Virus record (IMG/VR): IMGVR_UViG_3300009868_000001
Span: 1 to 64,000 of that record
Direction: 5' to 3' (one strand)
Source: a virus
Taxonomy: Duplodnaviria; Caudoviricetes
DNA length: 64,000 nt
The notes under the pieces are model-generated. The model saw only the letters and a list, made by a program, of their open reading frames with translations. It was not told where the DNA came from and did no database searches. Position 1 is the stretch's first letter. Every line of letters begins with the position of its first letter. Of the stretch, positions 46,516 to 64,000 are shown one piece after another. Position numbers and translations under genes: made by a program.

Positions 46516-46519
46516 TCAC

Positions 46520-48169: not shown

Positions 48170-48173
48170 AATT

Positions 48174-48200
48174 AAAAAGGGAGCATTTAGCTCCCTTTCT
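48174..48200. terminator. Bidirectional terminator between convergent operons
   Basis: AAAAAGGGAGC-ATTTA-GCTCCCTTTCT. Confidence 0.85.
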
Positions 48201-49061: not shown

Positions 49062-49084
49062 AGTTAAGTTATTTATCCCTCAGT

Positions 49085-49669: not shown

Positions 49670-49690
49670 GTGTAATTAAGTTACTTTTTC

Positions 49691-50952: not shown

Positions 50953-50960
50953 TTTTATTC

Positions 50961-51326
50961 TTACTTCTTAAGGGTAGCTAAGTTAGGATTTACTTCCTTC
51001 TTGCCTGCAGCCTTTCCGCCTACTTTAAGGTCTTCTCTCTTTGGATTGACTTCCTTAGATACTTTAGAACCCTTGCCGGTGTCTAGCTTACTAAGACCTG
51101 GTTTAACTTCCTTTGAAGGTGCAGAACCTCCACGAGTCTCTATCTTAGCCATACCTGCATTAGGTGACTTGCTGCCAGCTCCTTTGCCGCCAACTTTTAG
51201 ACCAGACAGTTCAGGGTCTATTTCTTTTGTTACCTTAGAACCTTTTCCAACGTCTAACTTAGCCAAATTTGGGTTAAGTTTTTCGTTAAGCAAAAATTCC
51301 TTATAAGATACAACTGGTTTGTTCAT
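50961..51326 (-). CDS. Basic repeat protein with capsid-targeting-like N-terminus
   Basis: VVSYKEFLLNE followed by ~18-aa K/G-rich repeats; perfect TATAAATA upstream. Confidence 0.6.
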   Translation of the reverse strand: MNKPVVSYKEFLLNEKLNPNLAKLDVGKGSKVTKEIDPELSGLKVGGKGAGSKSPNAGMAKIETRGGSAPSKEVKPGLSKLDTGKGSKVSKEVNPKREDLKVGGKAAGKKEVNPNLATLKK

Positions 51327-51346
51327 CTTTTCAAAATCTATTTTGG

Positions 51347-51355
51347 TTATTTATA
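51347..51355 (-). promoter_or_regulatory. Late promoter TATAAATAA
   Basis: Exact T4 late consensus TATAAATA on the minus strand. Confidence 0.8.
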
Positions 51356-51377
51356 AGAGACACTATCTCTATAAAAT

Positions 51378-51408
51378 AAAAAACCCTAAGATTTCTCTTA
51401 GGGTTTTT
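51378..51408 (-). terminator. Terminator after the major capsid gene
   Basis: AAAAACCCTAAGA-TTTC-TCTTAGGGTTTTT inverted repeat. Confidence 0.85.
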
Positions 51409-51433
51409 GTTATGTGACTTAGTCACTCAGTGC

Positions 51434-53161
51434 TTACGACTGAGGAACTAATGTGCTACCTGTTAGGATACCAAGGTTGTCAACAGTCATTGTGATGTAC
51501 TGAGACTCTGGGTGCCATCCTGCTTCGGTGATTGCATACCTTGACTTCAGTGCGATGACTGGAGACATTGTAGACTCAGAAACAGTTTGGAAGCTTTCAG
51601 CCATGATGTAAGGCATGAACTTGATACCTGGCTCTTCGTCACCACCTTTACGACCGATGAATATACGAGAGTCTCCCCACTTGAAGTTAGGGTCAACGTA
51701 TACTTGAAGACCGTAAACCTTACCGGCTGGATACAGTTGACCTGCACCTGATGGAAGATCGTTGCTGAATGGAGCGATTGAGTAACCTTGAGCATCAGCA
51801 AGAGCAGATGCAACACGTCCGTTTGTTACAACGAAAGTACCGTTACCGAAACGACCACGGTGGTAGATAAGGTTAGCCATTTCAAGGATCTTAGTAGCAA
51901 CCCTTCTTTGTAGAGTAGTGATGTTTTCGAATCCACCAAAACCTGCTGCTAAGTTAAGGGTAGTGATACCTGAACCTTCAACTTGACCAATCTTAGTTGT
52001 GTGAAGCTTACCAAGTTGTAAGTGTTTTACAACAAGTTGCTTGTTGATTGACTGTGCAACATCGTTAACTGCTGTGTTTTCCAACATAGAGATAACGTCA
52101 TAGTTCCATACCCTGTTAAGGTCTTGGATCTGGTTGATTGTTGCAGAGATCTTTACTTGGTCGTCAACTGCTTCGACGAACTTAGTAAACATCTTGATAC
52201 CCATTGAACGGAATTTGTTCTTTTCCGCTACTTCCCTCTTCATACCAGTTGGAAGGGTTGCTTCGTCTCCGTATTCTGGAAGGAATGGACCAACAAATGG
52301 GCTTGTACCAGCTGCATAGTCGTCATCAGACATTGAGGTAAAACCAGAGATATGGTTTTCTAATGCTGAAGTAAGAGCTGCTGTGGTAGTAGTTGTGAAG
52401 TCATAATCTGCAGTAGATGCAGTAAAGGTAATTGTGTTACCGTTAGCTACATATGTTGCGATTGTGTTTGTGCTCGAAGTGTCGTTGATAACCCTTAGGA
52501 TTGGGTTTGCATCCATCCTAGAGAAACCTACAAAACGTAGAGTCAAAGTCTGACCAGATACTACGATTGTTGCTTGAACGTTGTTATCAAGATCTCCCCA
52601 AGTTGAAACACCACCACCAGTTGTTGTCATGGCAGTTGAAGGTGTAATACCTTGGATTTTGATAAGGAACGGTTCGTAGTTAGAATCCAGGTTACCACCT
52701 AAGTATACGTAATCCAGATAAGGTAAGAAACCAACTGGAGCGTCCATAGTAACGACTGGTGTAAAGTCGAATGCTATAGTCTTAGATGCAACTTGAATTG
52801 CAACTGGCATAAGGGTTGGGAACTTGTCACCAGAACCTGATGCTTTGCCTACTGGGTAGTAAGCGTTTTTAGCTGCACCACCTGCAGTGAACGGAGTCAT
52901 GCTGTTGGTTGGAGCTGAGATTTGGCCGATTTGGCTGATCGATGTTGGTTGTTGGAAAAACAGACCAGGAGCACCGCTTTCAAAAAGAGCTCCATACAGT
53001 TGTTGTGGAGTTGCAGTTTGATCGAACATCGCGTGATAGTGGCAGTAATCTGACAACCAAGGTCTTGCTTCCACGTTACCACCATGTGCTTCTACGATAG
53101 GCTTCCACGTTTCGTTGATAACGTTATCGTTAAGCCTCTTGAAAATTTTTAATGATGCCAT
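51434..53161 (-). CDS. 23: Major capsid protein, gp23-like
   Basis: VVTMDAPVG, QIQDL, RGRFGNGTFVVTN, VYVDP, FMPYI, PVIALKSRYAI. Confidence 0.9.
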   Translation of the reverse strand: MASLKIFKRLNDNVINETWKPIVEAHGGNVEARPWLSDYCHYHAMFDQTATPQQLYGALFESGAPGLFFQQPTSISQIGQISAPTNSMTPFTAGGAAKNAYYPVGKASGSGDKFPTLMPVAIQVASKTIAFDFTPVVTMDAPVGFLPYLDYVYLGGNLDSNYEPFLIKIQGITPSTAMTTTGGGVSTWGDLDNNVQATIVVSGQTLTLRFVGFSRMDANPILRVINDTSSTNTIATYVANGNTITFTASTADYDFTTTTTAALTSALENHISGFTSMSDDDYAAGTSPFVGPFLPEYGDEATLPTGMKREVAEKNKFRSMGIKMFTKFVEAVDDQVKISATINQIQDLNRVWNYDVISMLENTAVNDVAQSINKQLVVKHLQLGKLHTTKIGQVEGSGITTLNLAAGFGGFENITTLQRRVATKILEMANLIYHRGRFGNGTFVVTNGRVASALADAQGYSIAPFSNDLPSGAGQLYPAGKVYGLQVYVDPNFKWGDSRIFIGRKGGDEEPGIKFMPYIMAESFQTVSESTMSPVIALKSRYAITEAGWHPESQYITMTVDNLGILTGSTLVPQS

Positions 53162-53178
53162 TTTTAAAATGGATTTTT

Positions 53179-55209
53179 TTAGTTTCGAGCCCTTCTTTTC
53201 AGAGACTCAAGGTATTCGTTTGAATATCCTCTTTGGTGTTCTGCAATCTTGCTAACGTGGACAAATCCTTCTTTACCTTGGTTGCTTTCGTCAAGCTTTT
53301 GCAGTTCTTGATTTCTCTTATTTGTATATATCCTCTCCTGGATGTTACGAAAATCGTAAGAATCCCAGAAGTTTTTAACTTGATATGGAGTATTCAACAC
53401 AAATGTTGTTGCTTTCACAGCAAGTTGATTCTTTTCGCCATCGTTCATAGCTTCAAAAAGTTCTTTGTAACCTTGTGGCATGAACTTTATGTAGGTAGGA
53501 ACTCCGACGTATTTTTGGTTTAGAACAGCTTCCATTAAGTTAAGGACCTCTGCTTCATTTGTATAAACAGAGAACTTAAGTGTCTCAACAATTGCTGTCT
53601 TAGTCTCTTGGTCTAATGAATAGAACTTAGACTTATTATCTTCGCTGAGTAGTTTTAAGAACGGATATTGATTCTCTAATACTGCCTTTGCTGTATTGTT
53701 TTTAACGTAGTTAAGTATCTTATCTACTGATTCGACTATGTCATCTACTGGTGATGATTCATCTACTGATATGTTAAGACCTTCATCTACTTTCTTAACT
53801 TCATCAAGTAATCTGCGAGTTCTTAACTTAGCACTAGGTATAACTGATTCGTTCATCATTTCTGCAACGTGTTCAGTATATAGAACGGTCTTTTCAAGTT
53901 GTTCGCCTAGATAGTCAGAAGAGTATTGGATGCTTTCTCCAAGTGTTTCACCGAGATAGTTTGCGTACCCAACAACACTCTTAATGTTCTTACCTAAGTA
54001 TTCAGAATATCTGATACCTTTCTCAGCCATTTCTCCAACATATTCAGTATATCCTACTCCTCTTTGGATAGACTCTGCTAGGTAGTTCATGTAACCTACG
54101 CTTTGGTTAAAGTTACGTCCTAAATAATTTGAATAGTTGACTGCTTCGTTTAAGGTAGTTCCTAAGTAAGCTGCATAACCACGAGTTTGGTTAACGCTCT
54201 CTGTGAGGTAATTGGAGAAACCAATAACCTTGTTGACCATTGTGCCAACATGTTCAGAGTAACCGATGCTCTTATTTTGCATTTCTGCCAGATAGTCAGC
54301 GTAATTAGTTACGTTCTGAATTTCTGTTGCTAAGTAGTTAACGTATTCTACCAGTTTAGGATCTTGAGTCGTTGACTCATTAACCCTTCCTGATTTAAGG
54401 TCGTTTATCAACCCAGTTAACTGGTCGAATTTTTCCTTAACTACTTCTGTGTACTTATTAAATTGCTCTGCTGTGATGTATGCACCCTGCATTTCCAATA
54501 TGTTATTTTCGTTGAAATCGTTGAAAATGTTTTTCTTATTTATCTTGTAAACTTGAATAGACTCAGATAGACCGAGGCTCTCGCTAATGTTTTGGAAATT
54601 GTTTACGGAGATAACAGATTCCTTTTTCAAAGAATCGAAAGCTTCGAAAAGCTTATTATAGTTATAATCATAACTTTCATTTAAAGTGGTCCTGTGAAGA
54701 GATGCTTCCTCGAAGCCAGGTTCTGCCACTAGGTCATATGTGAAGATTCTATGAAGTTTGACCCTTCCTTCATTCATTATTTGACCAGCAGCTCTTGATG
54801 AGATTGATACTGTGCAACCTGATTCTACGATAGTCTTTGCTATCCTACCACATGGAGTATCAAGAAGCTTTACACGTATTTTAACTCTATTTGAACCTTC
54901 ATCATATGTAAGAGATTCAACAACGTGTGAAACGTTTTTAAGAGCAATATCAAAATCCTTTGGGTGGTCTAATTCTCCGAAGAGCTTACCCCTCTTGATT
55001 TTTTCTTGTAAATATGTAAGATGGGGAAGGTATTCGTCCTTCTCGTAAATACGATTGTTATTGTTCTTAACTCCAAAAACAGCTGCAGTTCCCTCTAACG
55101 TAATATCATCTCCTGACTTATTAACAGTTAGAGCCTCGTTTACCCTAGTTATAACAAACGCTGGGTTATCAATGGATGCAAAAAGCTTTGCAAAATCGGG
55201 TGCTACCAA
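53179..55209 (-). CDS. 21: Prohead protease (gp21-like) fused to a scaffold/core domain
   Basis: LEGTAAVFGVKNNNNRIY, GELDHP, VSH, TPCGRI, SISSRAAG, TYDLVAEPGF; long repeat-rich C-terminus; late promoter at 55228-55236. Confidence 0.88.
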   Translation of the reverse strand: MVAPDFAKLFASIDNPAFVITRVNEALTVNKSGDDITLEGTAAVFGVKNNNNRIYEKDEYLPHLTYLQEKIKRGKLFGELDHPKDFDIALKNVSHVVESLTYDEGSNRVKIRVKLLDTPCGRIAKTIVESGCTVSISSRAAGQIMNEGRVKLHRIFTYDLVAEPGFEEASLHRTTLNESYDYNYNKLFEAFDSLKKESVISVNNFQNISESLGLSESIQVYKINKKNIFNDFNENNILEMQGAYITAEQFNKYTEVVKEKFDQLTGLINDLKSGRVNESTTQDPKLVEYVNYLATEIQNVTNYADYLAEMQNKSIGYSEHVGTMVNKVIGFSNYLTESVNQTRGYAAYLGTTLNEAVNYSNYLGRNFNQSVGYMNYLAESIQRGVGYTEYVGEMAEKGIRYSEYLGKNIKSVVGYANYLGETLGESIQYSSDYLGEQLEKTVLYTEHVAEMMNESVIPSAKLRTRRLLDEVKKVDEGLNISVDESSPVDDIVESVDKILNYVKNNTAKAVLENQYPFLKLLSEDNKSKFYSLDQETKTAIVETLKFSVYTNEAEVLNLMEAVLNQKYVGVPTYIKFMPQGYKELFEAMNDGEKNQLAVKATTFVLNTPYQVKNFWDSYDFRNIQERIYTNKRNQELQKLDESNQGKEGFVHVSKIAEHQRGYSNEYLESLKRRARN
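53860..54351 (-). repeat. About 12 tandem 14-aa repeats (YxxYLxE...) in the scaffold domain
   Basis: YVNYLATE, YADYLAE, YSEHVG, FSNYLTE, YAAYLG, YSNYLG, YMNYLAE, YTEYVGE, YSEYLG, YANYLGE and others. Confidence 0.85.
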
Positions 55210-55279
55210 CTTGGTCTAATTTTTTTCTTATTTATTAAGAGAAGACCAAGTAAAAATGAAAAGGTGTGTAATTATCCTA

Positions 55280-56203
55280 TCATCTGCACTTTTTTAGGAT
55301 AGTTTTCAGCGTTTCTAACTCACTTTCAGTAATATTTTTAGTGTTTAGGTCTCTTGGTTGAACAATAAACACATAGTTAGATACCACGTCATTAGGCATT
55401 TTTATGCCTTTATTATAGATTGTAAACTTAATTCTACTTAAATTCGATGAGTCGTATGATTTGACCTTAAACTTTTCTCCAACACATGTATCCACAAAGA
55501 TTGGTTCCTTTAAAAGCAAGTCGACCAGGTTACATGGAACTACATGATACACAGTTCCATCAGGCTCCATCCATAAAGTATCATCCGTTTTAAAAACTAT
55601 GTCAATTAAGGCGTCACCTGCGTATTTTACGTTCATACTGACCTGTTCTTCACCCATACCCTTAGCTATAAACCTAATATAATAGGTCTGTTCACCATTA
55701 TTGTTTAGGATATTAATAGGTTGCCAGTTTTCCCTAAGGTTAACCTTTATTGTTATAGATTCGTTTGAGATTGAACCAATACCTACGTCTGAAACAATGG
55801 TTCGTGAATATGGTATTTCAAACGAGACTCCTTTCATCAAATCAGCAAGAGGCACTTCCTTTCTAATATAAATGTTAAGGTTTTCGACTGACCTATTTGA
55901 TTTTTCAAAGTCCTTAAACCATCTATCTCTAAAACTAGTTCCAAAACCATCGATAAAATCTGCTCGACCGAAATCGGAGCTGAAGGATTGTTCGCTAGTC
56001 TCAGGCGTTTTTCTTCGTACGTCGTATTTTTGACGGGCTGTTTCGTTTCCTAATGTCTCAAAAGCTTCAGTTATTTCCTTAAACTTGTTTTCGTCTCCTC
56101 CCTTATCAGGGTGATGTTTCTTCGCAAGGTTACGGTATGCTGTTTTTATCTGAGCAGCCGTCGCATTTTCATTAACTCCTAATATTTTATAATAGTCTTT
56201 CAT
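55280..56203 (-). CDS. dnaJ: DnaJ-family co-chaperone without Zn finger
   Basis: DYYKILGV, AYRNLAKKHHPDKGG J-domain; C-terminal substrate-binding-like domain. Confidence 0.9.
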   Translation of the reverse strand: MKDYYKILGVNENATAAQIKTAYRNLAKKHHPDKGGDENKFKEITEAFETLGNETARQKYDVRRKTPETSEQSFSSDFGRADFIDGFGTSFRDRWFKDFEKSNRSVENLNIYIRKEVPLADLMKGVSFEIPYSRTIVSDVGIGSISNESITIKVNLRENWQPINILNNNGEQTYYIRFIAKGMGEEQVSMNVKYAGDALIDIVFKTDDTLWMEPDGTVYHVVPCNLVDLLLKEPIFVDTCVGEKFKVKSYDSSNLSRIKFTIYNKGIKMPNDVVSNYVFIVQPRDLNTKNITESELETLKTILKKCR

Positions 56204-56209
56204 TTCCTT

Positions 56210-56236
56210 AAACTAAGAAGCATAGCTTAGTATAAT
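56210..56236 (+). promoter_or_regulatory. Early/middle promoter AAACT-N15-GTATAAT heading the glycan operon
   Basis: Variant of the shared motif. Confidence 0.55.
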
Positions 56237-56268
56237 ACTTTACTAAAAAAGGAAATAATCAGGACAAA

Positions 56269-56919
56269 TTGGAGCTCAAAAATTTCATCCAGGCCCACCC
56301 AAATGAAAAATTTCTCATTCTTGGAAACGGAAAGTCAATTTTAAATCTTCCTAAAAAGATTGACTTAATTACCATTGGTGTAAATGACATAGAACGCCAT
56401 ATGATTCCTACTTATTTAGTTTTAACAGACAATCCTAATAGATTTGGTGTTGTAAATTCCAAACGAAGAAACCAAGTTCAATCGACTAAATCTAAGTTTG
56501 TCTTTGTTTTCGATAAATGGTGGACTTTTAAAAGTGATGACGGAAAAAACTTAGACTATAAAAGAATAGTCATGAAATTAGGTAAAAAGGGAAAACTTGA
56601 TAACCTAGATTCAAAGGACACTGTTGACTATTCAATAACGTCTCCGTATGTCGCTGCTATACTTGCATATAAAATGGGAGCCAAAGAAATTGGAATAATC
56701 GGAGTTGATTTTACGGACGGTCATTTTTATAGACCAGAGGATGGTGTTCACCCTATAGTTAAATCGTCTCGGTTAGAAGAGGTTGAGTGTCATTTCAAGG
56801 CATTAACTGAAGAGCTTGAACGTCGTGGTATTAAGGTTTGGAACTTAAGTGAAGAATCTATCTTAAAGCCAATTCCAAAAAAGAGCCTAAGTGAGTTTTT
56901 ATGTTACCAGACAACGTGA
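56269..56919 (+). CDS. Maf/DUF115-like (CstII/sialyltransferase-related fold) putative nonulosonate transferase
   Basis: ILGNGKS, TIGVN, PTYLVLTD, MGAKEIGIIGVDF, VWNLS; directly upstream of the NeuA-like gene. Confidence 0.65.
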   Translation: MELKNFIQAHPNEKFLILGNGKSILNLPKKIDLITIGVNDIERHMIPTYLVLTDNPNRFGVVNSKRRNQVQSTKSKFVFVFDKWWTFKSDDGKNLDYKRIVMKLGKKGKLDNLDSKDTVDYSITSPYVAAILAYKMGAKEIGIIGVDFTDGHFYRPEDGVHPIVKSSRLEEVECHFKALTEELERRGIKVWNLSEESILKPIPKKSLSEFLCYQTT

Positions 56920-57527
56920 AGATAGTTATACCTGCCAGAAGAGGTTCTAAGGGGTTTCCGTTTAAAAACAGAAAGCTTCTTCAATATACTCTTAATTCAA
57001 TTCCTAAAAAATATAGGAAAATGGTCTGGATAACGACGGATGACGAAAAAATTATAGATAAATGTAGAGGTGATTATAATGTAGTTGTTAGACCTAAATC
57101 ATTAGCACAGGATAATACTCCAATATGGAACTCCATGTTTCACCTCATTATTTCCAATAAGTCCTTTAAAAAGGACGACATTATCATAATGTTGTATTTA
57201 ACTTACCCAGATAGAAAATGGAAGTTAGTATTAAAGGCATTAAAGTTCTTTAAGAAACATAAAGCTAAAAGTCTTTTATGTAAAATTAAGGTTGATTCTC
57301 ATCCATATTTAATGATGTATGAAAACGGAATCAACGGCCGAATGATTGTATCTCACAATAAGTTTAGAAGACAAGACTATCCTGAAGTCTTTGAGCTCAG
57401 TCATTGTGTTTGCATCTTTAAAGTTAGTGAAATCCAAAACCTAGGTAGAAACCTATGGAATAATAATACAGTATACTTTCCAATTAAAAGACATCGGGAC
57501 GTAGACTATAAAAATCAATATAAGTAG
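56901..57527 (+). CDS. neuA: Acylneuraminate cytidylyltransferase (CMP-nonulosonate synthetase)
   Basis: IVIPARRGSKGFPFKN, ITTDD, RPKSLAQD, LTYPDR, RRQD, DVD. Confidence 0.85.
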   Translation: MLPDNVKIVIPARRGSKGFPFKNRKLLQYTLNSIPKKYRKMVWITTDDEKIIDKCRGDYNVVVRPKSLAQDNTPIWNSMFHLIISNKSFKKDDIIIMLYLTYPDRKWKLVLKALKFFKKHKAKSLLCKIKVDSHPYLMMYENGINGRMIVSHNKFRRQDYPEVFELSHCVCIFKVSEIQNLGRNLWNNNTVYFPIKRHRDVDYKNQYK

Positions 57528-57532
57528 TAAAA

Positions 57533-59077
57533 ATGAAAAGTGCGTTATTTACATACATTACAGAGTATTTGGTAAATGAGGTTGAACATGCAATAGATTC
57601 ATTTATGGTCAATCATGATGATTTTAATGGTAACATAATCATCCTGTATTCTAAATATGAACCGATAAGTGAAAAGACTCAACTTAAATTTAAGGAAAAA
57701 TATAACCCAATATTCAAATTAGTTTCAAGTGCTGGCCTTGATGTATTGTATTCAAGACTCAGAGGAGAGTTTAATCAAAACCCTTCAATCTGTCAATATC
57801 TTTTAGTTGAAGCATTAGGCGCCGTAAGTTATGACAAAATATATGCGATTTCGCCTAAAGTAACGATGACAGGCAAGTCAGACCAATATGTAAAAGCAGG
57901 TGACATAATTTTCTTTAAAAAGGATATGACTTATCGTGAAGATAAGAAGTTAATAGTTAGACTGGGACCAACTCTAGTCAATCCTAACTTTTTTATAGTT
58001 AACAAGCCGGCAATGGGGCAAAATTATCCAGGTTTTTTATATAAGAACCTTGTGTTTAATCGAGACCTAAGTACTGCAATGACTTATTTTCTCGTAAACT
58101 ATCTTTCAACCAAATGTCAGGTAAAAATTCTTGAAAATTCAGCTTTTCCAATAGTCGAAAATTTTTCAAATCAGGCATTTCCGATATTCGTTGCAAATCA
58201 ATCGAGGATGATAGGGATAGACTTTACGTTTATCAATAATGTAAATCAAAAAAATTATCTAAAGGTCCTGGATTTTTACAAAAAGAACCGGGAATTTGTT
58301 GATTCGTCTATCAAAGATAGACTTTTTAGGTATTCACCAGACAATTCTTTTGAAAATATTGACGTAGATATTGCAACTGAAATACCAGATGACTTGAAAT
58401 ACAATGTTCAGGGCCAAAATGAAAAATTATGTTTAATTGTCTCATTTAGAAACAGAGACCAACACCTCGAGGTATTTCTTCCATACATAACTGCGTACCT
58501 TGAAAATGTCAATAATATTCATGACTATCAAATAGTTATAGTCGAACAGGCCGACAATAAGCCATTCAATCGTGCTAAACTATTTAACATAGGTGTTAAT
58601 GAATGTCCTGGTTTCGATTACTATTGTTTTCATGACATTGACCTAATTCCAATCAATGTAGACTATTCATATTCACCTGATCCAACACACTTAGCTGTTT
58701 ATGTAGAACAGTTCGGTTATGAGATTCCATATGCTGAATATTGGGGAGGAGTCATTATTGTTCCGACTGATTCATTTAAAGCAGTTAACGGATTTAGTAA
58801 TGAATATTGGGGATGGGGAGCAGAGGATGATGATTTTTACCATCGTTTGTTAAATGGTAAATGTAATCCTGTTCGACGACCTGGCGGTAAATACAGGTCT
58901 CTTTCACATGTTAGTAATATGGATCCAGTCATACGTGAGAAAAACTGGAAACAGTTTTTGGAAGCTAAAAATTCTGGATTTAATAAGCAAATAAGCAGCG
59001 GTCTTTCAAACCTAGAGTATAAACTTCTTAGTGTTTCAGGATACGGCAAAATAAAATTTATCAAGGCTGAATTATGA
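57533..59077 (+). CDS. GT7 beta-1,4-galactosyltransferase-like domain fused to a divergent N-terminal domain
   Basis: FRNRDQHL, FNRAKLFNIG, FHDIDL, YWGGV, VNGFSNEYWGWGAEDDD. Confidence 0.88.
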   Translation: MKSALFTYITEYLVNEVEHAIDSFMVNHDDFNGNIIILYSKYEPISEKTQLKFKEKYNPIFKLVSSAGLDVLYSRLRGEFNQNPSICQYLLVEALGAVSYDKIYAISPKVTMTGKSDQYVKAGDIIFFKKDMTYREDKKLIVRLGPTLVNPNFFIVNKPAMGQNYPGFLYKNLVFNRDLSTAMTYFLVNYLSTKCQVKILENSAFPIVENFSNQAFPIFVANQSRMIGIDFTFINNVNQKNYLKVLDFYKKNREFVDSSIKDRLFRYSPDNSFENIDVDIATEIPDDLKYNVQGQNEKLCLIVSFRNRDQHLEVFLPYITAYLENVNNIHDYQIVIVEQADNKPFNRAKLFNIGVNECPGFDYYCFHDIDLIPINVDYSYSPDPTHLAVYVEQFGYEIPYAEYWGGVIIVPTDSFKAVNGFSNEYWGWGAEDDDFYHRLLNGKCNPVRRPGGKYRSLSHVSNMDPVIREKNWKQFLEAKNSGFNKQISSGLSNLEYKLLSVSGYGKIKFIKAEL

Positions 59078-59691
59078 AAATTGATTTGACTAAAATTCCT
59101 GCTTTTTGGTTTGGTGGCATTAAACCAAATCGGGCAAAAAGAATCACAAATATGTTTAAGCGGACAGGTATCAATGCTTCCAAGCTTGAAACATTTATAG
59201 ATTCCGACCCGGTTATGGGTTGTGCACTCAGTATGAAAAACGCCCTTAAGGTCGTCAATCAAATAGACGAACCATGTTTAGTATTTGAGGATGACGCAGA
59301 AACTACTGCCCATGTTAGGTCTATGGTTATTGAAGTTCCTGATGATGCAGATGCAGTTTATCTTTGTTTAAGTAAATATGGAGTAATGAAGGATTGGAAA
59401 CTTCAACACCGAGATAAAATGGCTTCAGAAAAGGATTTTTCCTTTGTTAGGACCAGAGATCCTAGATTTGTTAAGTTAAACAATATGGTAACGTTGACTG
59501 CTGTTGTTTACATAACTGAGAGGTATAAGAAACATGCATTAAAAGAAATTGATTCAGTGATTCCTACCAAACTTCACTGTGATGTTCCTATTGCATTGGC
59601 CTTACGTGATTTTAATGTATATGCTATGACCAAACCTCTTTTTTATCAAGAGTGCCCATTGTCTAAAAAAACAACCAATTTTGTGCTATGA
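59074..59691 (+). CDS. GT25-like glycosyltransferase
   Basis: GCALS, CLVFEDDA, LTAVVYI, HCDV, LFYQ. Confidence 0.65.
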   Translation: MKIDLTKIPAFWFGGIKPNRAKRITNMFKRTGINASKLETFIDSDPVMGCALSMKNALKVVNQIDEPCLVFEDDAETTAHVRSMVIEVPDDADAVYLCLSKYGVMKDWKLQHRDKMASEKDFSFVRTRDPRFVKLNNMVTLTAVVYITERYKKHALKEIDSVIPTKLHCDVPIALALRDFNVYAMTKPLFYQECPLSKKTTNFVL

Positions 59692-60512
59692 TAGCAAGAA
59701 CTTTTTTCTCTAGAAAATGGAACGATAATGGGGAACCTTGGTTTCAAGTTGACCTTCCGTTTAAGTGTGATATTTACATGAATTATATAGACCATGAAAC
59801 CCTTGCTAAAACCCCATCAGGCGTTAAAAAGGTTTTCATGGACATAAACGAACCTACGTTTTACGGTCAGTCTGTTGAGACTTTATTGGAAAACGCTGAT
59901 AAATTTAATGCTATAATAACTAAACACCAAAGTGTTATAAATTCGATTCCTTGGGCAACAACTGATATTTGGGCATCAAGCTACATTATTCCCAACAAAA
60001 ATATAGACAAGGATTTCTCCGTTTCCTTTCTTTGCACGAATAAAAAAGGTTACCCTGGATACGAAGTCAGACACCAGCTTTGGAACAGACAGGACGAAAT
60101 AACAGTCCCAAAAAGATTTTGGAGTTCAAAATATCTACCAGTAGACCCCAATCGCATTTTACCTGGAACCGGTGAAAATACCGATAAGATTGTTTTATTT
60201 AAGTCTATGTTTTCAATCTGTCCTGAAAATTCAAGTGAAGAGAACTACCTTACTGAAAAGATTATGGATTGTTTTTTAACGATGACTGTTCCAATCTATC
60301 GTGGGTGCACGAATTTTGAAAAATATTTTAATCCAAACGGTGTCATCTTTTTTAATGACATTGACGATTTAATTCAAAAGATTAATAATTTAACTCCTTA
60401 TGAATATTTCAGTAGACTTCCAGCTATGCAGGAAAATTTCAACAAAGCTATGAAAATGATGAATCCCGGTGAAAGAGTTAGGGATCTCATTTTACAAAAA
60501 ATAAAACAATAA
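59688..60512 (+). CDS. GT10 alpha-1,3-fucosyltransferase-like
   Basis: FSICPENSSEENYLTEKIMDCFLTMTVPIYRG alpha-3 FucT motif. Confidence 0.85.
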   Translation: MIARTFFSRKWNDNGEPWFQVDLPFKCDIYMNYIDHETLAKTPSGVKKVFMDINEPTFYGQSVETLLENADKFNAIITKHQSVINSIPWATTDIWASSYIIPNKNIDKDFSVSFLCTNKKGYPGYEVRHQLWNRQDEITVPKRFWSSKYLPVDPNRILPGTGENTDKIVLFKSMFSICPENSSEENYLTEKIMDCFLTMTVPIYRGCTNFEKYFNPNGVIFFNDIDDLIQKINNLTPYEYFSRLPAMQENFNKAMKMMNPGERVRDLILQKIKQ

Positions 60513-60513
60513 C

Positions 60514-61269
60514 GTGGATTTAATAGTCGATAATAAAAACAAGGTCCTAGTGTTTTGGAATGCTAAGTGTGGGTGTTCTTTTGTAAAAGCATTATTTTTA
60601 CAATCTCGTGAAATACCTTTACCTGAGTTTGAGCAGTTACATGAAATCATAGGATATGGGTATAGTCCAAACCAGGAATTTTCGTTTATTGATACAAACG
60701 ATTTAGAAAGATATTCTTCATATAAAAAGGTCCTTATCGTTAGGGACCCATATAAAAGATTGGTGAGCGGATTCTTAGAAAAGATCCCCAAATGGATTAA
60801 GGCTGGTCACTTTAATCAATCATGTTACCTGTCATTTAACGATTTTATTTCTAAAATATCAGAGATAAACGGAGTAGTTTCATGTGGCTCTTCTTCTTTT
60901 TATGACATTAAACACTTCATTCCCCAGTTTTCTGAAAAATATGAAATATTTGAAAAGATGGGGTGGACTTTTGACTATGTGATAGACGTTTCTCAGCTTT
61001 CTAAAAATATAGATGTGTTTGAGAACTTATTCAGTTCTAAACTCGATGAAGTCGCTGCATTTGAAATTGGTAGCTCACACCAAGTCAAATATTCCGATTC
61101 AATTAGAGAAGGTTCAGCAGACGTTCCACTAGAAGAATGGATGAACACTAACGTTTTCCCAAACTACAAAAGCTTTTATATGAACGAACAGGTCATGCAG
61201 TCCTTTAATCATCTCTATTCAAATGACCTACTAAAATTAAAAGAACTTGGTTTTGAATATTCATTATGA
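60514..61269 (+). CDS. Carbohydrate sulfotransferase (Sulfotransfer_2-like)
   Basis: 5'-PSB-like NAKCGCS, 3'-PB VRDPYKRLVSGF, HFIPQ, YSNDL. Confidence 0.8.
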   Translation: MDLIVDNKNKVLVFWNAKCGCSFVKALFLQSREIPLPEFEQLHEIIGYGYSPNQEFSFIDTNDLERYSSYKKVLIVRDPYKRLVSGFLEKIPKWIKAGHFNQSCYLSFNDFISKISEINGVVSCGSSSFYDIKHFIPQFSEKYEIFEKMGWTFDYVIDVSQLSKNIDVFENLFSSKLDEVAAFEIGSSHQVKYSDSIREGSADVPLEEWMNTNVFPNYKSFYMNEQVMQSFNHLYSNDLLKLKELGFEYSL

Positions 61270-62084
61270 AATTAGGAGTATCATATAGTGTGTTTGATGG
61301 CGTTGAATTACTTGAATCATCAATAAAACAGATCAGAAAGGACGTTGATTTTATAGATGTTCAGTATCAGGAGAAATCATGGTTCGGTAAGCCTGCAAAG
61401 CCTATTGATTTATGTATTCTTAATGAACTTAAGAAAAAAGGTCTCATTGATTCTCTGACTCTATTTAAGAACTTTTATGAGCTTAAGCCCATAAAGATGC
61501 ACGTCATGCAGTCTAAAATATTTGAGACCGCTAAGAGAAATGCCGGGTTGGACTCATGTCTAAAGAAGGGTTGTACTCATTTTATGAATATGGACGTTGA
61601 CGAATTTTATGACACGGAACAGTTTAGAAAAGCAAAATCAATAATTGAAGAAAAGGACCTTGAAACGACTGCTGTTTCGTATTTGAATTACGTAACACCG
61701 ACTTTACATAGAGGTTATTCTCCTCATTTGGTTCCATTCATTCATAAAATAACGCCTGCGGCCAGACATACTAAATTTCAACCGTATTTTCCAGGAGTAG
61801 ATCCTACTCGTGGTCTTGGAGATGAGTCTTATAAGAGATGGCGTATATTTCCTAAGGAGGATATCATAATGCATCATATGGAAATGGTCAGAAGGGATCT
61901 TGCATCGAAATACGAGTCTACTTCAAGGTTTTATTTAGAACGTAATAGAATTAATGAACTGGTTCAACTTGTTGAAGAGTCTAAATCAAAAAACTCCATA
62001 AATTTTAAAGGTATAATATATCCTGGAGCAAAGGAAGATTCTATTTTGACTCCTGTTGAAAATAAATTTGGGATTAAAATATGA
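61266..62084 (+). CDS. GT-A fold glycosyltransferase (GT2-like)
   Basis: ETAKRNAGL, MDVDEFY DxD motif, MHHM. Confidence 0.65.
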   Translation: MKLGVSYSVFDGVELLESSIKQIRKDVDFIDVQYQEKSWFGKPAKPIDLCILNELKKKGLIDSLTLFKNFYELKPIKMHVMQSKIFETAKRNAGLDSCLKKGCTHFMNMDVDEFYDTEQFRKAKSIIEEKDLETTAVSYLNYVTPTLHRGYSPHLVPFIHKITPAARHTKFQPYFPGVDPTRGLGDESYKRWRIFPKEDIIMHHMEMVRRDLASKYESTSRFYLERNRINELVQLVEESKSKNSINFKGIIYPGAKEDSILTPVENKFGIKI

Positions 62085-62911
62085 CCCAGATAATTGCAGA
62101 GATAGGAATCAATCATAATGGAAGTCTTGAGATTACTAAAAGACTGATAGATGAAGCAGTTGAAGCAGGTGCTGATTATGTAAAGTTTCAAAAAAGAGAC
62201 CCAGATATCTGCGTTCCTGATGAAATGAAAAATGTCTTACGTGACACTCCATGGGGCAGAATAACTTACCTTGAATATAAGAAGAATTTAGAATTTTCAT
62301 ATTTAGAATATGAAGAGATTGACAAATACTGTAAACTTAAAGGGATTAAATGGTTTCTTTCAGTTTGGGACCTTAACTCTGCTGAATTTGCTCGGGAAAT
62401 CGATCACACTATTGTAAAGATTCCATCAGCTCTTGCTCTAGACCAGCCCCTGTTAGAATATTGTAGAAAACATTTTGAGACTCTCATTATATCTGTCGGT
62501 ATGTGTGAAGGCTATCAAATTCAAAGCATAATAGATAGAATTAAGCCGGATGTGATTATGCACACAAATTCATCATATCCAAGTCCAATTGAAGAACTAA
62601 ACCTAAACCACATTAAATGGCTTGAAAAGGTGTCTAATGGGTCGGGTCATAGATTTGAAATTGGTTATTCTGGACATGAATTTGGATTGGTGACGACATT
62701 TGCTGCAGTTGCAATGGGAGCGACTTGGATCGAAAGACATATCACATTAGACAGGACGATGTGGGGTTCTGACCAAGAGTCTTCAGTCGAACCGTTGGGC
62801 TTTAAAAAACTTGTCAAGGGTATTAGAGATATAGAAAAATCGCTTGGAGAATATGGACCACGTAAGGTCACTCCTTCTGAGCATCAAAAAATAAAATCAT
62901 TAAGAAAATGA
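62081..62911 (+). CDS. neuB: N-acetylneuraminate/nonulosonate synthase, short form without SAF domain
   Basis: IIAEIGINHNG, GADYVKFQKR, KIPSA, HTNSSYP, GYSGHE, IERHITLDR, GSDQ. Confidence 0.92.
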   Translation: MTQIIAEIGINHNGSLEITKRLIDEAVEAGADYVKFQKRDPDICVPDEMKNVLRDTPWGRITYLEYKKNLEFSYLEYEEIDKYCKLKGIKWFLSVWDLNSAEFAREIDHTIVKIPSALALDQPLLEYCRKHFETLIISVGMCEGYQIQSIIDRIKPDVIMHTNSSYPSPIEELNLNHIKWLEKVSNGSGHRFEIGYSGHEFGLVTTFAAVAMGATWIERHITLDRTMWGSDQESSVEPLGFKKLVKGIRDIEKSLGEYGPRKVTPSEHQKIKSLRK

Positions 62912-63876
62912 AAAGAGCATTAGTATGTGGTGCAGGTGGATTCATCGGAAGCCATCTTGTAAAAAGACTTAAGAATGAAGGATTCTATGTAATTGGCGCC
63001 GATTTAAAGATGCCGGAGTTTAGTAAAACAGCAGCAGACAAGTTTATAATAATAGACCTTAGAGAACCGGGTCTTTGTGATGCTCTATTTAGAGAAGGAA
63101 AGTTTGATCATGTGTATCAGCTTGCTGCCGATATGGGCGGAGCAGGTTATATTTTTACTGGAGAACATGATGCGGATGTGATGCACAACTCTTCACAAAT
63201 TAATCTTAATATTGCTAAACTTTGTGTAAAGTTTAACGTTGAACGTGTATTTTATTCTTCATCTGCTTGTATGTATCCTGCATACAATCAAGAGGACCCT
63301 AATAATCCTAACTGTAAAGAAGATTCAGCATATCCTGCAAACCCAGACTCAGAATACGGTTGGGAAAAGCTTTTCAGTGAAAGGTTATATCTAAGCTTTC
63401 ATAGAAACTATGGCTTAAATGTTAGGATAGCCAGGTTCCATAACATATTTGGACCTGAAGGAACCTGGACAGGCGGAAAAGAAAAGGCTCCAGCTGCCAT
63501 ATGTAGAAAGGTTGCTTCAGCTGAAACTGGAACGTCAATCGATATCTGGGGAGATGGAGAACAGACCCGATCGTTTCTTTATATTGATGAATGTGTTGAA
63601 GGAATCAGAAAATTAATGGAATCTGATTTTGTTGGTCCGGTCAATATTGGTTCAGATGAAATGGTCACTATAAACGACCTTGCAAACAGGACAATTACAA
63701 TATCAGGAAAAACCCTTTCCTTAAACCATATTGAAGGTCCTCTTGGAGTAAGAGGTAGGAATTCTGATAATAATTTAATTCAGGAAAAATTGGGATGGTC
63801 ACCTAATAAACCATTAAATGATGGTCTTGCTTCCACTTATGCTTGGATTGACGAACAAGTTAAAAAGACTAAGTAA
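62908..63876 (+). CDS. GDP-mannose 3,5-epimerase-like extended SDR
   Basis: GAGGFIG, AADMGGAGYI, YSSSACMYP, YGWEK, RFHNIFGPEGTWTGGKEKAPAAICRK, GVRGRNSDN. Confidence 0.88.
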   Translation: MKRALVCGAGGFIGSHLVKRLKNEGFYVIGADLKMPEFSKTAADKFIIIDLREPGLCDALFREGKFDHVYQLAADMGGAGYIFTGEHDADVMHNSSQINLNIAKLCVKFNVERVFYSSSACMYPAYNQEDPNNPNCKEDSAYPANPDSEYGWEKLFSERLYLSFHRNYGLNVRIARFHNIFGPEGTWTGGKEKAPAAICRKVASAETGTSIDIWGDGEQTRSFLYIDECVEGIRKLMESDFVGPVNIGSDEMVTINDLANRTITISGKTLSLNHIEGPLGVRGRNSDNNLIQEKLGWSPNKPLNDGLASTYAWIDEQVKKTK

Positions 63877-63877
63877 T

Positions 63878-64000
63878 GTGAGTAAGACATATTTAATAGA
63901 CATAGACCAGACCATTTCTAAGACAGACGGTCTGGCTTATGAAAGGGCAGAACCAATACTAAACAACATCAACACTGTAAATCGATTATTTGATGAAGGT
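63878..64000 (+). CDS. HAD-family phosphatase, N-terminal part (truncated by the window end)
   Basis: Manual translation from GTG 63878: MSKTYLIDIDQTISKTDGLAYERAEPILNNINTVNRLFDEG; DxDxT motif I. Confidence 0.7.
   Translation, partial: MSKTYLIDIDQTISKTDGLAYERAEPILNNINTVNRLFDEG

Follow-up and report, generated by a model that had tools for sequence, protein, structure and literature searches.

The eleven-gene glycan island of this uncultured aquatic jumbo myophage is, as the comparison of gene order indicated, an accessory and lineage-variable cassette at a fixed hot spot between the baseplate hub gene and the DnaJ/protease/capsid block. What is new is that the same spot carries differing sugar genes, from 0 to 9 kb, in different jumbo phage lineages. 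The island very probably has the enzymatic capacity to make a nonulosonate donor, an L-sugar donor and a sulfated glycan, because family, motif and fold evidence was obtained gene by gene and the proteins had no transmembrane segments. The proposal as a whole, that a hot-spot island makes a product that decorates the virion proteins of the phage itself, is plausible but somewhat short of probable. If it is true, the particle would gain a variable anionic glycan coat.

Island layout and insertion site

The window, the whole 64,000-nucleotide stretch analyzed, belongs to a contig that covers 41% of a genome of ~260 kb. Open reading frame calls gave 11 co-directional genes on the plus strand at 56269-64823, ending 823 bp past the window against a convergent baseplate-hub gene. 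The ten coupled genes of the preliminary description, which expected the operon to continue, were all present and the operon did run on; with the remainder of the HAD gene and an additional gene, g11, the total comes to 11. The island and its frame are as follows, with numbering continued past position 64000.

51434-53161, minus strand: right-hand frame, major capsid protein (PHROG)
53179-55209, minus strand: right-hand frame, prohead protease (PHROG)
55280-56203, minus strand: right-hand frame, DnaJ-like protein (PHROG hits; J-domain by inspection)
56204-56268: divergent intergenic region, 65 bp
56269-56919, plus strand: g1, 216-aa CstII/Maf-fold (GT42-like/PF01973-like) transferase, TTG start
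56901-57527, plus strand: g2, 208-aa CMP-nonulosonate synthetase (NeuA/PseF/LegF class)
57533-59077, plus strand: g3, 514-aa two-domain transferase, GT8-like + GT7
59074-59691, plus strand: g4, 205-aa probable GT-A transferase, GT25-like (weak assignment)
59688-60512, plus strand: g5, 274-aa GT10-type (fucosyltransferase family) transferase for a GDP-L-sugar
60514-61269, plus strand: g6, 251-aa PAPS-type carbohydrate sulfotransferase (Sulfotransfer_2)
61266-62084, plus strand: g7, 272-aa GT-A (GT2-like) transferase, DxD = MDVDE
62081-62911, plus strand: g8, 276-aa NeuB-family nonulosonate synthase without a C-terminal SAF domain
62908-63876, plus strand: g9, 322-aa GDP-mannose 3,5-epimerase (GME)
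63878-64198, plus strand: g10, small HAD phosphatase (DIDQT), about 106 aa, first 123 nt inside the window
64200-64823, plus strand, beyond the window: g11, second CstII/Maf-fold transferase, about 207 aa
64797-65588, minus strand, beyond the window: left-hand frame, baseplate hub gene (PF04717, phrog_430; gp5-like OB domain)

Given the likely starts of g10 (GTG 63878; the longest reading frame begins at 63818) and g11 (ATG 64200; longest frame from 64152), neighboring genes overlapped by at most 19 nt and were separated by at most 5 nt, and the 3' end of the hub gene overlapped g11 by 27 nt. As described earlier, the proteins had no membrane anchors; a transmembrane-grade hydrophobic stretch was absent from every island protein (maximum KD19 1.45), and all eleven products are predicted to be soluble.

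The survey of related jumbo phages suggested in the preliminary description showed that the hub/DnaJ/protease/capsid order was kept in about 50 IMG/VR relatives, whose complete genomes are about 250-270 kb, while the cargo of the gap varied. The distance between the hub and DnaJ-like genes was 0 bp at 19 loci, where the two genes adjoin directly and the island is absent, 0.7-1.9 kb at seven, 3.7-6.4 kb at 21 and 8.4-9.2 kb at three. The cargo named by Pfam in a scan of ten representatives, three of which had no Pfam match and many of whose small reading frames fell outside the scan, comprised GT2, GT4, RgpF, rhamnosyltransferase, GT92, FkbM methyltransferase and NeuB-like genes and a g1+g2 pair. 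The commonest island gene in the clade was g7, homologs of which (43-47% identity) adjoin the hub gene in many relatives. Along the capsid tree the island changed state just three times, too few for a statistical test.

A chimeric assembly, or a phage contig fused to bacterial capsule DNA, is extremely improbable. The GC content of the island (0.33-0.35) is slightly below that of the head genes (0.40), but both borders were collinear with complete relatives, the islands of the relatives lie at exactly the same site and share g7, and the best bacterial NeuB match was 46% identical and had no synteny. The island is genuinely phage DNA, in agreement with the earlier reading of it as a phage operon.

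The only non-coding DNA upstream of the island is the 65-bp divergent region, which appears to be a control region common to the island and the DnaJ/head block. It contains the palindrome AGTATAATACT at 56229-56239, the one perfect copy in the window, and 12 of 15 relatives keep it in the corresponding intergenic region. A single promoter beside the head genes had been proposed. The late co-expression that this suggests was not borne out: the late motif ATAAATA[AG] was absent from the plus strand of 56204-56268 and a GTATAAT-type element, which otherwise precedes replication genes in this phage, lies upstream of the operon. The source phage encodes a gp55-like late sigma, and in six of 13 relatives the exact late-promoter motif stands just ahead of the first island gene.

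Donor synthesis and transferases

In the first donor pathway a NeuB-type synthase is joined by a cytidylyltransferase and a small HAD phosphatase. The synthase, g8, matched PF03102 at 208 bits and TIGR03569 and TIGR03586 at 208 and 148 bits, both below the equivalog cutoffs; in the PDB it matched PseI (8h2c, 8e-28) and a 290-aa synthase (6ncs, 1e-27). The phosphatase, g10, matched phrog_1238 (8e-19) and a capsule biosynthesis protein (9iqw, 1.4e-9), and its DxDxT motif was present. A homolog of g10 adjoins a NeuB homolog in one other phage (MH319754) and lies ~3 kb from one in another (LR756508). Such a pairing of a SAF-less NeuB with a mini-HAD was noted for a Kyanoviridae virus, in which the two adjoin, and for a 484-kb phage and a Pelagibacteraceae SAG contig, in which they lie near each other. 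The cytidylyltransferase, g2, scored 23.1 bits against PF02348 (cutoff 22.6) and 8e-10 against TIGR03584 (PseF), and matched the CMP-Neu5Ac synthetases 6ifd (8e-8) and 1eyr (2e-6).

A NeuC-type epimerase was not found in the contig, and no ManNAc-forming enzyme is present. Since the latter is missing, the synthase would most simply condense PEP with mannose-6-phosphate, among sugar 6-phosphates, to give Kdn-9-phosphate; the HAD enzyme would take off the 9-phosphate and g2 would then form the CMP-sugar. A phosphate/phosphatase route is the mark of Kdn synthesis in B. thetaiotaomicron and P. parvum, and likewise of the human pathway; typical bacterial pathways do not need the phosphatase (PMC6200933). 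The second donor pathway starts from host GDP-mannose, the substrate of the GDP-mannose 3,5-epimerase. Residues 5-322 of g9 aligned to Arabidopsis GME (2c59, 1.6e-101), and the gene was 66-69% identical in nucleotides to cyanophage epimerase genes. It would feed GDP-L-galactose/L-gulose to the GT10-type enzyme.

Six genes encode transferases, with seven transferase-like domains among them: g1 and g11 have the CstII/Maf fold, g3 fuses a GT8-like domain to GT7, and g4, g5 and g7 are GT25-like, GT10-type and GT2-like, respectively. One PAPS-type sulfotransferase, g6, accompanies them. Gene g1, presumed to be CMP-nonulosonate-dependent, matched the phrog_4603 sialyltransferase (1.7e-6). Its AF2 model (pLDDT 94.5) had CstII (6e-5), CstI and Maf (5mu5) as top Foldseek matches and also matched MptE, its family profile matched only GT42 sialyltransferases in the PDB, and distant homologs carry PF01973. 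The second such enzyme, g11, was related to the N-terminus of g1 by BLASTP (2e-6) and to the g1 family by hhalign (probability 92%, E 6.5e-7, 169 columns).

Gene g3, previously listed as GT7, proved to have an additional GT8-like N-terminal domain. Its GT7 domain (residues 296-505) scored 65.6 bits for GT7N and 80.3 bits for GT7C in Pfam and matched beta4GalT1 (1tvy, 2.7e-40) with the catalytic motifs intact (HDIDL, WGWGAEDDD and the Tyr289 equivalent kept), and is firmly predicted to be a true beta4-galactosyltransferase domain. The N-domain (residues 1-253) may be catalytically dead; it has ISPK at the DxD position, and six of nine ESM Atlas structure rows named GT8 (TM 0.60-0.68). For g4, a GT25-like assignment is weak: PF01755 scored 16.6 bits where 24 is the cutoff, and a search of the PDB gave no match. 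The protein also matched phrog_24091 (function unknown, 1.7e-25) and has a FEDDA motif by inspection. The GT10 profile PF00852 matched g5 at 23.9 bits, equal to the cutoff, and H. pylori alpha1,3-FucT aligned at 2e-7 across the donor motif, CPENS..YLTEK in g5; homologs with 32% identity occur in the islands of relatives L097 and L103. The AF2 model of g7 (pLDDT 78) matched TarS, SunS, ColGalT1 and TarP in Foldseek.

The sulfotransferase g6 (PF03567, 37.6 bits) has a 5'-PSB-like AKCGCS and a 3'-PB-like VRDPYKRLVSGF by inspection. Only three relatives were found in a large protein collection, two of them on contigs that also bear g1 and g3 homologs. On these contigs, of 90,459 bp and 57,185 bp, the g1/g3/g6 homologs were 77/73/58% and 57/52/42% identical, the g3 homologs being full-length, and this co-occurrence was counted as a sign of real phage cargo under selection.

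The enzyme classes listed in the preliminary description were therefore borne out by the profile and structure checks except for GT25, which fell below the cutoff. The assignments of GT7, GME, NeuB, CMP-nonulosonate synthetase, sulfotransferase, GT10, GT-A/GT2-like, HAD and the two CstII/Maf-fold proteins are firm, in keeping with the earlier claim that the phage can supply CMP-nonulosonate and a GDP-L-sugar along with transferases and a sulfotransferase, all soluble. The GT7 domain would add beta-linked galactose, g1 and g11 would attach nonulosonate and g6 would draw on host PAPS. The predicted outcome is an oligosaccharide, anionic and sulfated and at most about six or seven residues long, which would be assembled in the cytoplasm with no lipid-carrier export pathway supplied by the phage.

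The acceptor of the glycan

The likeliest candidate acceptors are Ser/Thr residues of the phage's own structural proteins, namely fibre-like poly-Ser/Thr proteins or insertion domains of the capsid or sheath. Several observations favor a virion acceptor, 1) the island sits inside the structural module, 2) six of 13 relatives have the late motif ahead of it, 3) lipid-carrier genes are absent, Wzx, Wzy/WaaL and an initiating phosphoglycosyltransferase having been found neither in the source contig nor in three relatives at least 93% complete, as the earlier remark on flippase and ligase anticipated, and 4) mucin-like proteins accompany the islands. Mucin-like poly-Ser/Thr proteins are encoded by each of four near-complete relatives that have an island, with 9-25 stretches of five or more S/T in one protein. 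Of the three island-less genomes compared with these four, one, 84% complete, had neither a mucin-like protein nor a homolog of any island gene, and two fragments had one weaker S/T-rich protein each. Against a virion acceptor, the source contig, 41% of the genome, has no mucin-like protein; the syntenic place for such genes falls just past its end. Its copy of a ~2,040-aa structural protein has none of the poly-Thr linkers of the G007 and G008 orthologs. Also counted against it were that the source operon has the replication-type GTATAAT element and no late motif, and that the closest characterized enzymes act on lipooligosaccharide. The virion-protein acceptor proposed earlier remains a hypothesis that gained some independent support from the comparison of relatives.

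The last two points also favor a less likely alternative, remodeling of the host envelope, in which the soluble transferases would lengthen lipooligosaccharide, the LPS core or some other lipid-linked glycan of the host at the cytoplasmic face for export by host MsbA/Lpt or capsule machinery. An altered host surface would hide receptors from superinfecting phages or keep progeny virions off cell debris. The nearest characterized relatives of g1 and g11 are CstII, CstI and a Pasteurella LOS sialyltransferase, and g5 is closest to H. pylori FucT; all of these, like the relatives of the GT8-like and GT25-like parts, belong to LOS/LPS outer-core synthesis. CstII, H. pylori FucT and GT8/GT25-type LOS enzymes are soluble or peripheral, work at the cytoplasmic face and depend on host export with no dedicated flippase. 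The argument from missing membrane anchors, flippase and ligase to a cytoplasmic acceptor, made in the preliminary description, is consequently weak. Envelope remodeling is at odds with the conserved site in the structural module, the exact late promoter in about half of the relatives and the mucin-like proteins in near-complete genomes; moreover, a lysogeny function, which would allow time for surface conversion, was not seen.

Some other cytoplasmic acceptor is improbable, whether a host protein, a phage protein outside the virion structure, a small molecule or a free oligosaccharide. It would suit the solubility of every island enzyme and the lack of an acceptor in the sequenced 41% of the genome, but has no positive evidence, and a surface-exposed product would be more typical of so variable a cassette at a hot spot within the structural module. 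Far less probable is a multi-sugar chain on hydroxymethyl-pyrimidines of the phage DNA as protection against restriction. The window does contain a thymidylate-synthase-fold gene (PHROG thymidylate synthase; region 45243-48169), and phage transferases that build multi-sugar DNA hypermodifications are reported where PMC12619734 cites Pyle et al. 2024. However, no island transferase resembles known DNA glucosyltransferases, carboxylate and sulfate on DNA to be packaged would be physically unfavorable, and the island is missing from close relatives with the same overall gene order.

Relation to known systems

Comparable clusters in large cyanophages were interpreted by their authors as cell-wall modification (PMC12801897), a reading that favors the envelope alternative. 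The preliminary description likened the island to the sulfo-sialyl-Lewis enzyme set. The likeness extends to enzyme classes only; which nonulosonate, L-sugar and acceptor are used, and the linkages and their order, are not readable from sequence. The epimerase points to GDP-L-galactose/L-gulose as the L-sugar donor rather than GDP-fucose.

The operon and its insertion site

The source record was a single linear IMG/VR contig of 109,066 bp, with a completeness of 41% by the CheckV estimate, and the window was its first 64 kb. The contig was collinear with a complete relative of 270,136 bp, over kb 68-172 of the latter. Some 80 IMG/VR contigs encoded a capsid protein with about 60% identity to that of the present phage, and several of these contigs were 250-271 kb long and 93-100% complete; among deposited phages the best matches, at about 33% identity, were the Lak megaphages and an uncultured phage of 462 kb. 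The description of the moraphages, Lak-related aquatic jumbo phages with DnaK/DnaJ genes and predicted Bacteroidota hosts (PMC12619734), fits the present phage in a general way.

The glycan island was an operon of eleven genes, designated g1 to g11, in which adjoining genes overlapped by up to 19 nt or were separated by up to 5 nt (probable starts, GTG at 63878 and ATG at 64200). The gene list of the preliminary description was correct, and the operon continued past the window, as had been proposed there, ending 823 bp beyond it. On the 5' side, a 65-bp region was common to the operon and to the divergent genes for a DnaJ-like protein, the prohead protease and the major capsid protein, and on the 3' side the last gene overlapped the 3' end of the convergent baseplate-hub gene. 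The features concerned were:

56269-64823, plus strand, glycan operon, g1 to g11
56229-56239, palindrome AGTATAATACT in the divergent intergenic region
55280-56203, minus strand, DnaJ-like protein of 307 aa, J-domain with HPD motif, between the glycan island and the prohead protease
14973-15419, minus strand, gp55-like late sigma factor gene
55235, 51354, 49698, 14955 and 11808, examples of ATAAATA[AG] motif sites

The T4-like late promoter motif ATAAATA[AG] occurred 24 times in the genome, mostly just 5' of minus strand structural genes and, before many of these, at a distance of 10-25 nt. None was found on the plus strand before or inside the glycan operon. The palindrome, found at the corresponding place in 12 of 15 relatives, supplied instead a GTATAAT element resembling those 5' of the replication genes, and may be an operator common to both sides or a promoter element that works in both directions. 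Scans for sigma-70 promoters and terminators returned sites no more numerous than in shuffled sequence. The replication-gene block also encoded a GroEL chaperonin (17470-19089, plus strand; phrog_5725, 1.5e-148). Elsewhere, the family match of the 1,158-aa ribonucleotide reductase large subunit (24159-27635, plus strand) was split between residues 14-288 and residues 700-964, which suggests that something, for example an intein, has been inserted.

The order hub, DnaJ-like protein, protease and capsid was recovered by tblastn with the flanking genes in about 50 relatives; the DnaJ-like gene had the same position in these, yet its identity was only 26-35%. The gap between hub and DnaJ genes was 23-63 bp in 19 loci, 0.7-1.9 kb in seven, 3.7-6.4 kb in 21 and 8.4-9.2 kb in three. 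Seven of the ten representative cargo proteins scanned with Pfam were glycan enzymes of families that varied by lineage, including GT2, GT4, RgpF, rhamnosyltransferase, GT92 and FkbM methyltransferase, and three had no Pfam match, many small ORFs lying outside the scan. Some lineages also had a NeuB-like gene, the g1 and g2 pair or a GT10-like gene, as found by tblastn with the window's own proteins. Most islands opened with a long protein in which a shared N-domain of about 230 aa was followed by differing transferase domains, and the commonest island member was the g7 family. On the capsid tree, island-less clades were nested among island-bearing ones, with at least three changes of island state. 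The gap sizes, the differing cargo and these changes together indicate that the island is mobile accessory cargo carried at a hot spot.

Homologs of g1, g3 and g6 were found on contigs of two shared sizes (90,459 bp and 57,185 bp), with identities of 77, 73 and 58% and of 57, 52 and 42%, suggesting, from equal contig sizes only, that at least the core of this operon was kept in two closer relatives. A scan of IMG/VR and JGI metagenomes for the whole operon, made with g3, returned GT7-domain relatives only, none with the other genes, and a g7 peptide-pattern scan returned nothing; g7 relatives were found by tblastn on the capsid-anchored loci. Among 50,697 deposited phage genomes, tblastn gave no match to g3 or to the g6 sulfotransferase, one weak match to g1 and three to the NeuB type of g8. 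GT7-domain proteins were common in aquatic metagenomes, often fused to the lectin-like Laminin_G_3 domain. Three GT7-domain genes stood in tandem in other viral IMG/VR contigs (L004-L006, for example L005 7850-11904). GT2-family genes lay far from the head/baseplate island in two complete relatives (G006 210453-215848; G007 124009 and 160368), so there may be a second glycan locus in the clade.

The preliminary description had allowed for a host capsule locus with near-identity and synteny. No close or syntenic bacterial locus was found and a host capsule origin was rejected; that the island is an artefact is hardly credible.

Enzymes encoded by the island

The capacity of the phage to encode a soluble pathway for a glycan that contains a nonulosonate and an L-sugar and bears sulfate was well supported. 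No membrane-spanning stretch was found in any of the 11 island proteins.

The AlphaFold model of g1 (pLDDT 94.5), built from an alignment of 59 homologs, had CstII, CstI, a Pasteurella sialyltransferase, Maf and an MptE-type kinase as its top structural matches in Foldseek, with a probability of 1.00 and TM 0.46-0.51 for CstII and CstI. The g1 family profile matched only GT42 sialyltransferase chains in the PDB (E 0.003), across the segment S..A..G.K.I...G.DF, while the single sequence gave chance matches only. g11 was a distant paralog that joined the g1 family at an hhalign probability of 92%, and both proteins had the hallmarks of the GT42 fold, 1) the CstII fold itself, 2) an N-terminal GNG nucleotide loop and 3) the central S..A..G.K.I...G.DF segment. 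Sequence inspection pointed to the histidines after the GVDF segment of g1 (DGHFY..GVHP) as candidate counterparts of the catalytic His188 of CstII. Neither g1 nor g11 had any Pfam match; PF01973 (Maf) was present only in g1 homologs at about 35% identity, and g1 spanned just the core of the 632-aa Maf structure 5mu5 (TMt 0.21). The first gene had been called Maf/CstII-like, which holds for its fold and not for membership of the Maf family.

The C-terminal domain of g3 matched Glyco_transf_7N (65.6 bits, cutoff 27) and Glyco_transf_7C (80.3 bits, cutoff 23), and residues 296-505 matched beta4GalT1 in the PDB at 2.7e-40 over 209 residues. The motifs HDIDL (DxD), WGWGAEDDD and PYAEYWGG aligned to the bovine enzyme and were kept in both full-length homologs; the last contains the equivalent of Tyr289, which we take to specify Gal rather than GalNAc as the donor. 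Judged by its sequence, this is a true GT7 domain (CAZy GT7, beta-1,4-galactosyltransferase). The type II membrane anchor and stem of the animal GT7 enzymes were absent; g3 had no hydrophobic segment, and a GT8-like domain occupied its N-terminal part. That domain (residues 1-253) had no Pfam match and was identified by an ESM Atlas structure search, in which six of nine rows named GT8 (TM 0.60-0.68). From a reading of the alignment, ISPK replaced the expected DxD site in all three homologs, so the domain may not be catalytic. Its comparison with the shared N-domain of the relatives' first island gene gave an hhalign E of 0.0023 at a probability of only 12%.

The GT25 identity proposed for g4 was weak: Glyco_transf_25 scored 16.6 bits, under the cutoff of 24, and the PDB sequence search gave chance matches only, leaving the protein weakly GT25-like. 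g5 scored exactly the PF00852 (GT10) cutoff of 23.9 bits and kept the EN and YxTEK elements of the donor motif of H. pylori FucT (F..C.EN....Y.TEK), in an alignment of only about 64 residues. g6 matched Sulfotransfer_2 (37.6 bits, cutoff 22) and on inspection contained AKCGCS and VRDPYKRLVSGF, the two PAPS-binding motifs. g7 was a GT-A transferase with a DxD, its nearest folds being TarS, SunS, ColGalT1 and TarP; the search of its profile against the PDB gave only a non-significant match to GmaR.

Four genes were assigned to donor synthesis. g9, a GDP-mannose 3,5-epimerase (GME), matched Arabidopsis GME over its full length with 343 bits (1.6e-101), the next SDR class scoring 88 bits. The GME family converts GDP-mannose to GDP-L-galactose or L-gulose, and the GT10-type g5 would be the natural user of such a product. 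g2, a CMP-nonulosonate synthetase, matched CTP_transf_3 at 23.1 bits (cutoff 22.6) and CMP-Neu5Ac synthetase structures at 8e-8, had the loop VIPARRGSKG by inspection, and scored far under the PseF equivalog cutoff. g8 was a NeuB-family nonulosonate synthase with the NeuB TIM-barrel (PF03102, 208 bits, model positions 1-238 of 241) that ended at residue 276 with no SAF/antifreeze-like C-terminal domain, a size resembling that of the solved synthase 6ncs (290 aa); it fell under the equivalog cutoffs for both NeuB (208 vs 399.65 bits) and PseI (148 vs 340.25 bits). g10 was a small HAD phosphatase with no match to the solved KdsC-type phosphatases, its best match being an unrelated small HAD annotated 'capsule biosynthesis protein'.

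The SAF-less NeuB and the same small HAD were side by side in an unrelated marine T4-like virus of the Kyanoviridae (MH319754.1; L121, 12001-13127), with the HAD directly downstream; this virus also had a GME, 61% identical. The two genes were also near each other in a 484-kb phage (LR756508.1; L122, 12001-16361), together with a GT10-like fragment, and in a Pelagibacteraceae single-cell contig. Because of these pairings, the NeuB type and the small HAD look like one module. Only a synthase that works on a sugar 6-phosphate calls for a phosphatase; this is so for the human pathway and for the Kdn pathways of B. thetaiotaomicron and P. parvum (PMC6200933). Since the contig had no NeuC-type epimerase, the simplest guess, and a guess only, is that g8, g10 and g2 would make Kdn from mannose-6-phosphate and activate it. 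No APS kinase was present, so PAPS must be derived from the host. The likeness to a sulfo-sialyl-Lewis set that had been drawn earlier stands for the enzyme classes, all of which were matched; the wording is an analogy of classes only.

The acceptor of the glycan

The preliminary description had argued for a cytoplasmic acceptor from the missing anchors and export genes. The absence was real: PF02397, PF01943 and PF04932 (initiating phosphoglycosyltransferase, Wzx and Wzy/WaaL) had no match in the 109-kb contig or in three relatives that were 93-100% complete, the positive controls being matched in both cases. The search covered the Wzx, Wzy/WaaL and Bac_transf families, with WecA-type and ABC-transporter families outside it. 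The argument itself fails to discriminate: the closest enzymes of known function assemble lipooligosaccharide at the cytoplasmic face and leave its export to general host machinery. These same enzymes speak for a host envelope glycolipid as the acceptor, and the late motif missing here, with a GTATAAT element of the replication-gene type in its place, speaks against the virion; even so, we regard the envelope as a rather unlikely target. Virion proteins are the acceptor that we favour, tentatively and at somewhat short of an even chance. Leaning to the virion are the conserved position of the island within the structural module and the exact late motif that lay just 5' of the first island gene in 6 of 13 relatives.

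Whole genomes were screened for poly-Ser/Thr proteins, in which Ser/Thr made up 55% or more of a 40-residue window, and for runs of at least five Ser/Thr. The sequences discussed here were:

3-5048, minus strand, structural protein of about 2,040 aa, cut by the left end of the contig about 360 codons before its end
31843-34734, minus strand, tail sheath, with the Thr-rich patch SSSTTLSPSETS
51434-53161, minus strand, capsid protein, with the Thr-rich patch DFTTTTTAAL in an insertion domain (residues about 150-285)
39337-58750 of G006 (complete relative, 270 kb; L166-L167), minus strand, four consecutive genes for Ser/Thr-rich proteins

The outcome also leans to the virion. Each of four island-bearing, near-complete relatives had two to four proteins that reached the window threshold and one protein with 9-25 of the runs, for example PTTTTT repeats. 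An island-less relative that was 84% complete had no poly-Ser/Thr protein and no homolog of any island gene, and two island-less fragments had one weaker Ser/Thr-rich protein each, the comparison being one of four genomes with three, which are not independent samples. The set in G006 included a 3,733-aa protein with 49% Ser/Thr and collagen-like (Gly-Thr-Ser)n repeats and an 810-aa protein with PTTTTT repeats; adjoining it, at 35.1-36.1 kb, were an FkbM-like methyltransferase homolog and another island-type gene. On the other side, no mucin-like protein was found in the present contig. In the relatives these genes lay 7-30 kb left of the gene for the 2,040-aa protein, a place that here would be past the contig end. 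The orthologs of that protein in G007 and G008, both island-bearing, had poly-Thr linker cassettes (T6-ISG-T6SS-G-T7), which were missing from the present copy and from that of the island-less G001.

The Thr-rich patches of the capsid and sheath could be candidate O-glycosylation sites, and as such are without statistical support. The Ser/Thr content of the capsid insertion domain was 0.20-0.27 in island-bearing and 0.13-0.21 in island-less phages; it was dropped as evidence on the acceptor, the independent-pairs test giving p = 1 with no power because there were only three changes of island state along the tree. Some other cytoplasmic target is improbable, and phage DNA far more so.

A wider proposal, possible but doubtful, is that a clade of aquatic jumbo phages carries out mucin-type O-glycosylation of its own particle in the bacterial cytoplasm, with no lipid carrier, by means of a swappable hot-spot cassette, the glycan here bearing sulfate as well as an L-sugar and a nonulosonic acid. 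The usual view of phage particles is that they are bare protein. If the proposal is true, no sulfated, sialylated-type glycoprotein coat would have been described before for a bacterial virus, and transferase families otherwise typical of animals (GT7, GT10 and Sulfotransfer_2) would take part in building it. Self-coating with charged sugars could alter virion adsorption, sticking to mucus or particles, protease resistance, escape from antibodies or grazers, and the diversification of phage "serotypes", for which a hot spot with a conserved frame and swappable glycan cargo offers a simple comparative handle. If the target is host lipooligosaccharide, a lytic jumbo phage would be rewriting the surface of its host. 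Possible tools for glycan synthesis are the minimal 210-aa CstII/Maf-fold transferase, the soluble GT7, the soluble carbohydrate sulfotransferase and a GT10 that may use GDP-L-galactose.

Relation to known systems

In mycobacteriophages, virion glycosylation is reported to involve a few transferases, which modify the C-terminal portions of capsid and tail-tube subunits (Freeman et al. 2023, Cell Host Microbe, as cited in PMC12619734 and PMC12801897). As there, the island encodes soluble glycosyltransferases near structural genes, and carriage is accessory and variable between phages. The mycobacteriophage glycans go onto virion proteins in the cytoplasm, as may those of the island. The island, however, has seven transferase-like domains, a sulfotransferase and two pathways of donor synthesis, and the capsid protein here has no C-terminal Ser/Thr tail. 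Giant viruses (chlorovirus capsid glycans, Megavirinae fibrils) decorate virion proteins by their own nucleotide-sugar synthesis and soluble transferases, in lineage-variable clusters. Their hosts, however, are eukaryotic.

The islands for Maf O-glycosylation of flagellin with nonulosonates, as in Aeromonas and Campylobacter (PF01973; structure 5mu5; PMC4065374), likewise combine a NeuB-type synthase, a CMP-activating enzyme and a Maf/CstII-fold transferase, are cytoplasmic and have no lipid carrier, and they act on the protein ahead of its assembly. In contrast to the 632-aa Maf, g1 and g11 (each about 210 aa) are reduced to the core, with no extra domains, and no flagellin is involved; the GT7, GT10 and GT2-like enzymes and the sulfotransferase are absent from Maf islands. 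The lipooligosaccharide mimicry toolkits of Campylobacter jejuni (CstII, GT42), Helicobacter pylori (FutA/B, GT10) and Neisseria/Haemophilus (GT8, GT25) use the same folds and families, soluble or peripheral, to make sialylated and fucosylated products. However, identity in the fold alignments is very low, at 12-18%, the island is phage-encoded within a structural module, its beta4-galactosyltransferase is of the animal GT7 type rather than GT25, and a sulfotransferase is added.

The T4-like cyanophages S-SCSM2R, S-SCSM1 and P-SSM2 carry 'LPS' or cell-wall gene clusters of function inferred only (PMC12801897). These, too, are large aquatic myophages with glycosyltransferases, NDP-sugar epimerases and ulosonic-acid enzymes, and the g9 GME gene has 66-69% DNA identity to cyanophage epimerase genes. 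Their clusters carry KdsA/KdsB (Kdo) instead of a NeuB-type nonulosonate pathway, and the GT7 and sulfotransferase of the island had no match in the 50,697 phage records. The Kdn pathway of Bacteroides thetaiotaomicron and Prymnesium parvum, comprising Kdn-9-P synthase, Kdn-9-P phosphatase and CMP-Kdn synthetase (PMC6200933), resembles the island in having a synthase, a HAD phosphatase and a cytidylyltransferase and no ManNAc-forming enzyme. It differs in that the island HAD gave no match to solved KdsC-type phosphatases, and the substrate of the island synthase is a predicted one.

With the animal sulfo-sialyl-Lewis x pathway the island shares the GT7 (beta4GalT) and GT10 (alpha3FucT) families outright, and the sialyltransferase and PAPS sulfotransferase as classes. 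Unlike in animals, the sialyltransferase-like enzymes adopt the CstII/Maf fold of bacteria instead of belonging to GT29, and GDP-L-galactose takes the place of GDP-fucose as the implied donor of the L-sugar. The sulfotransferase belongs to the Sulfotransfer_2 type, and all the enzymes are soluble rather than Golgi-anchored. No paper on a phage nonulosonate/sulfate glycan island was found among those searched. Phage glycan gene clusters and virion glycosylation are kinds already known, and the present island is a variant of these.
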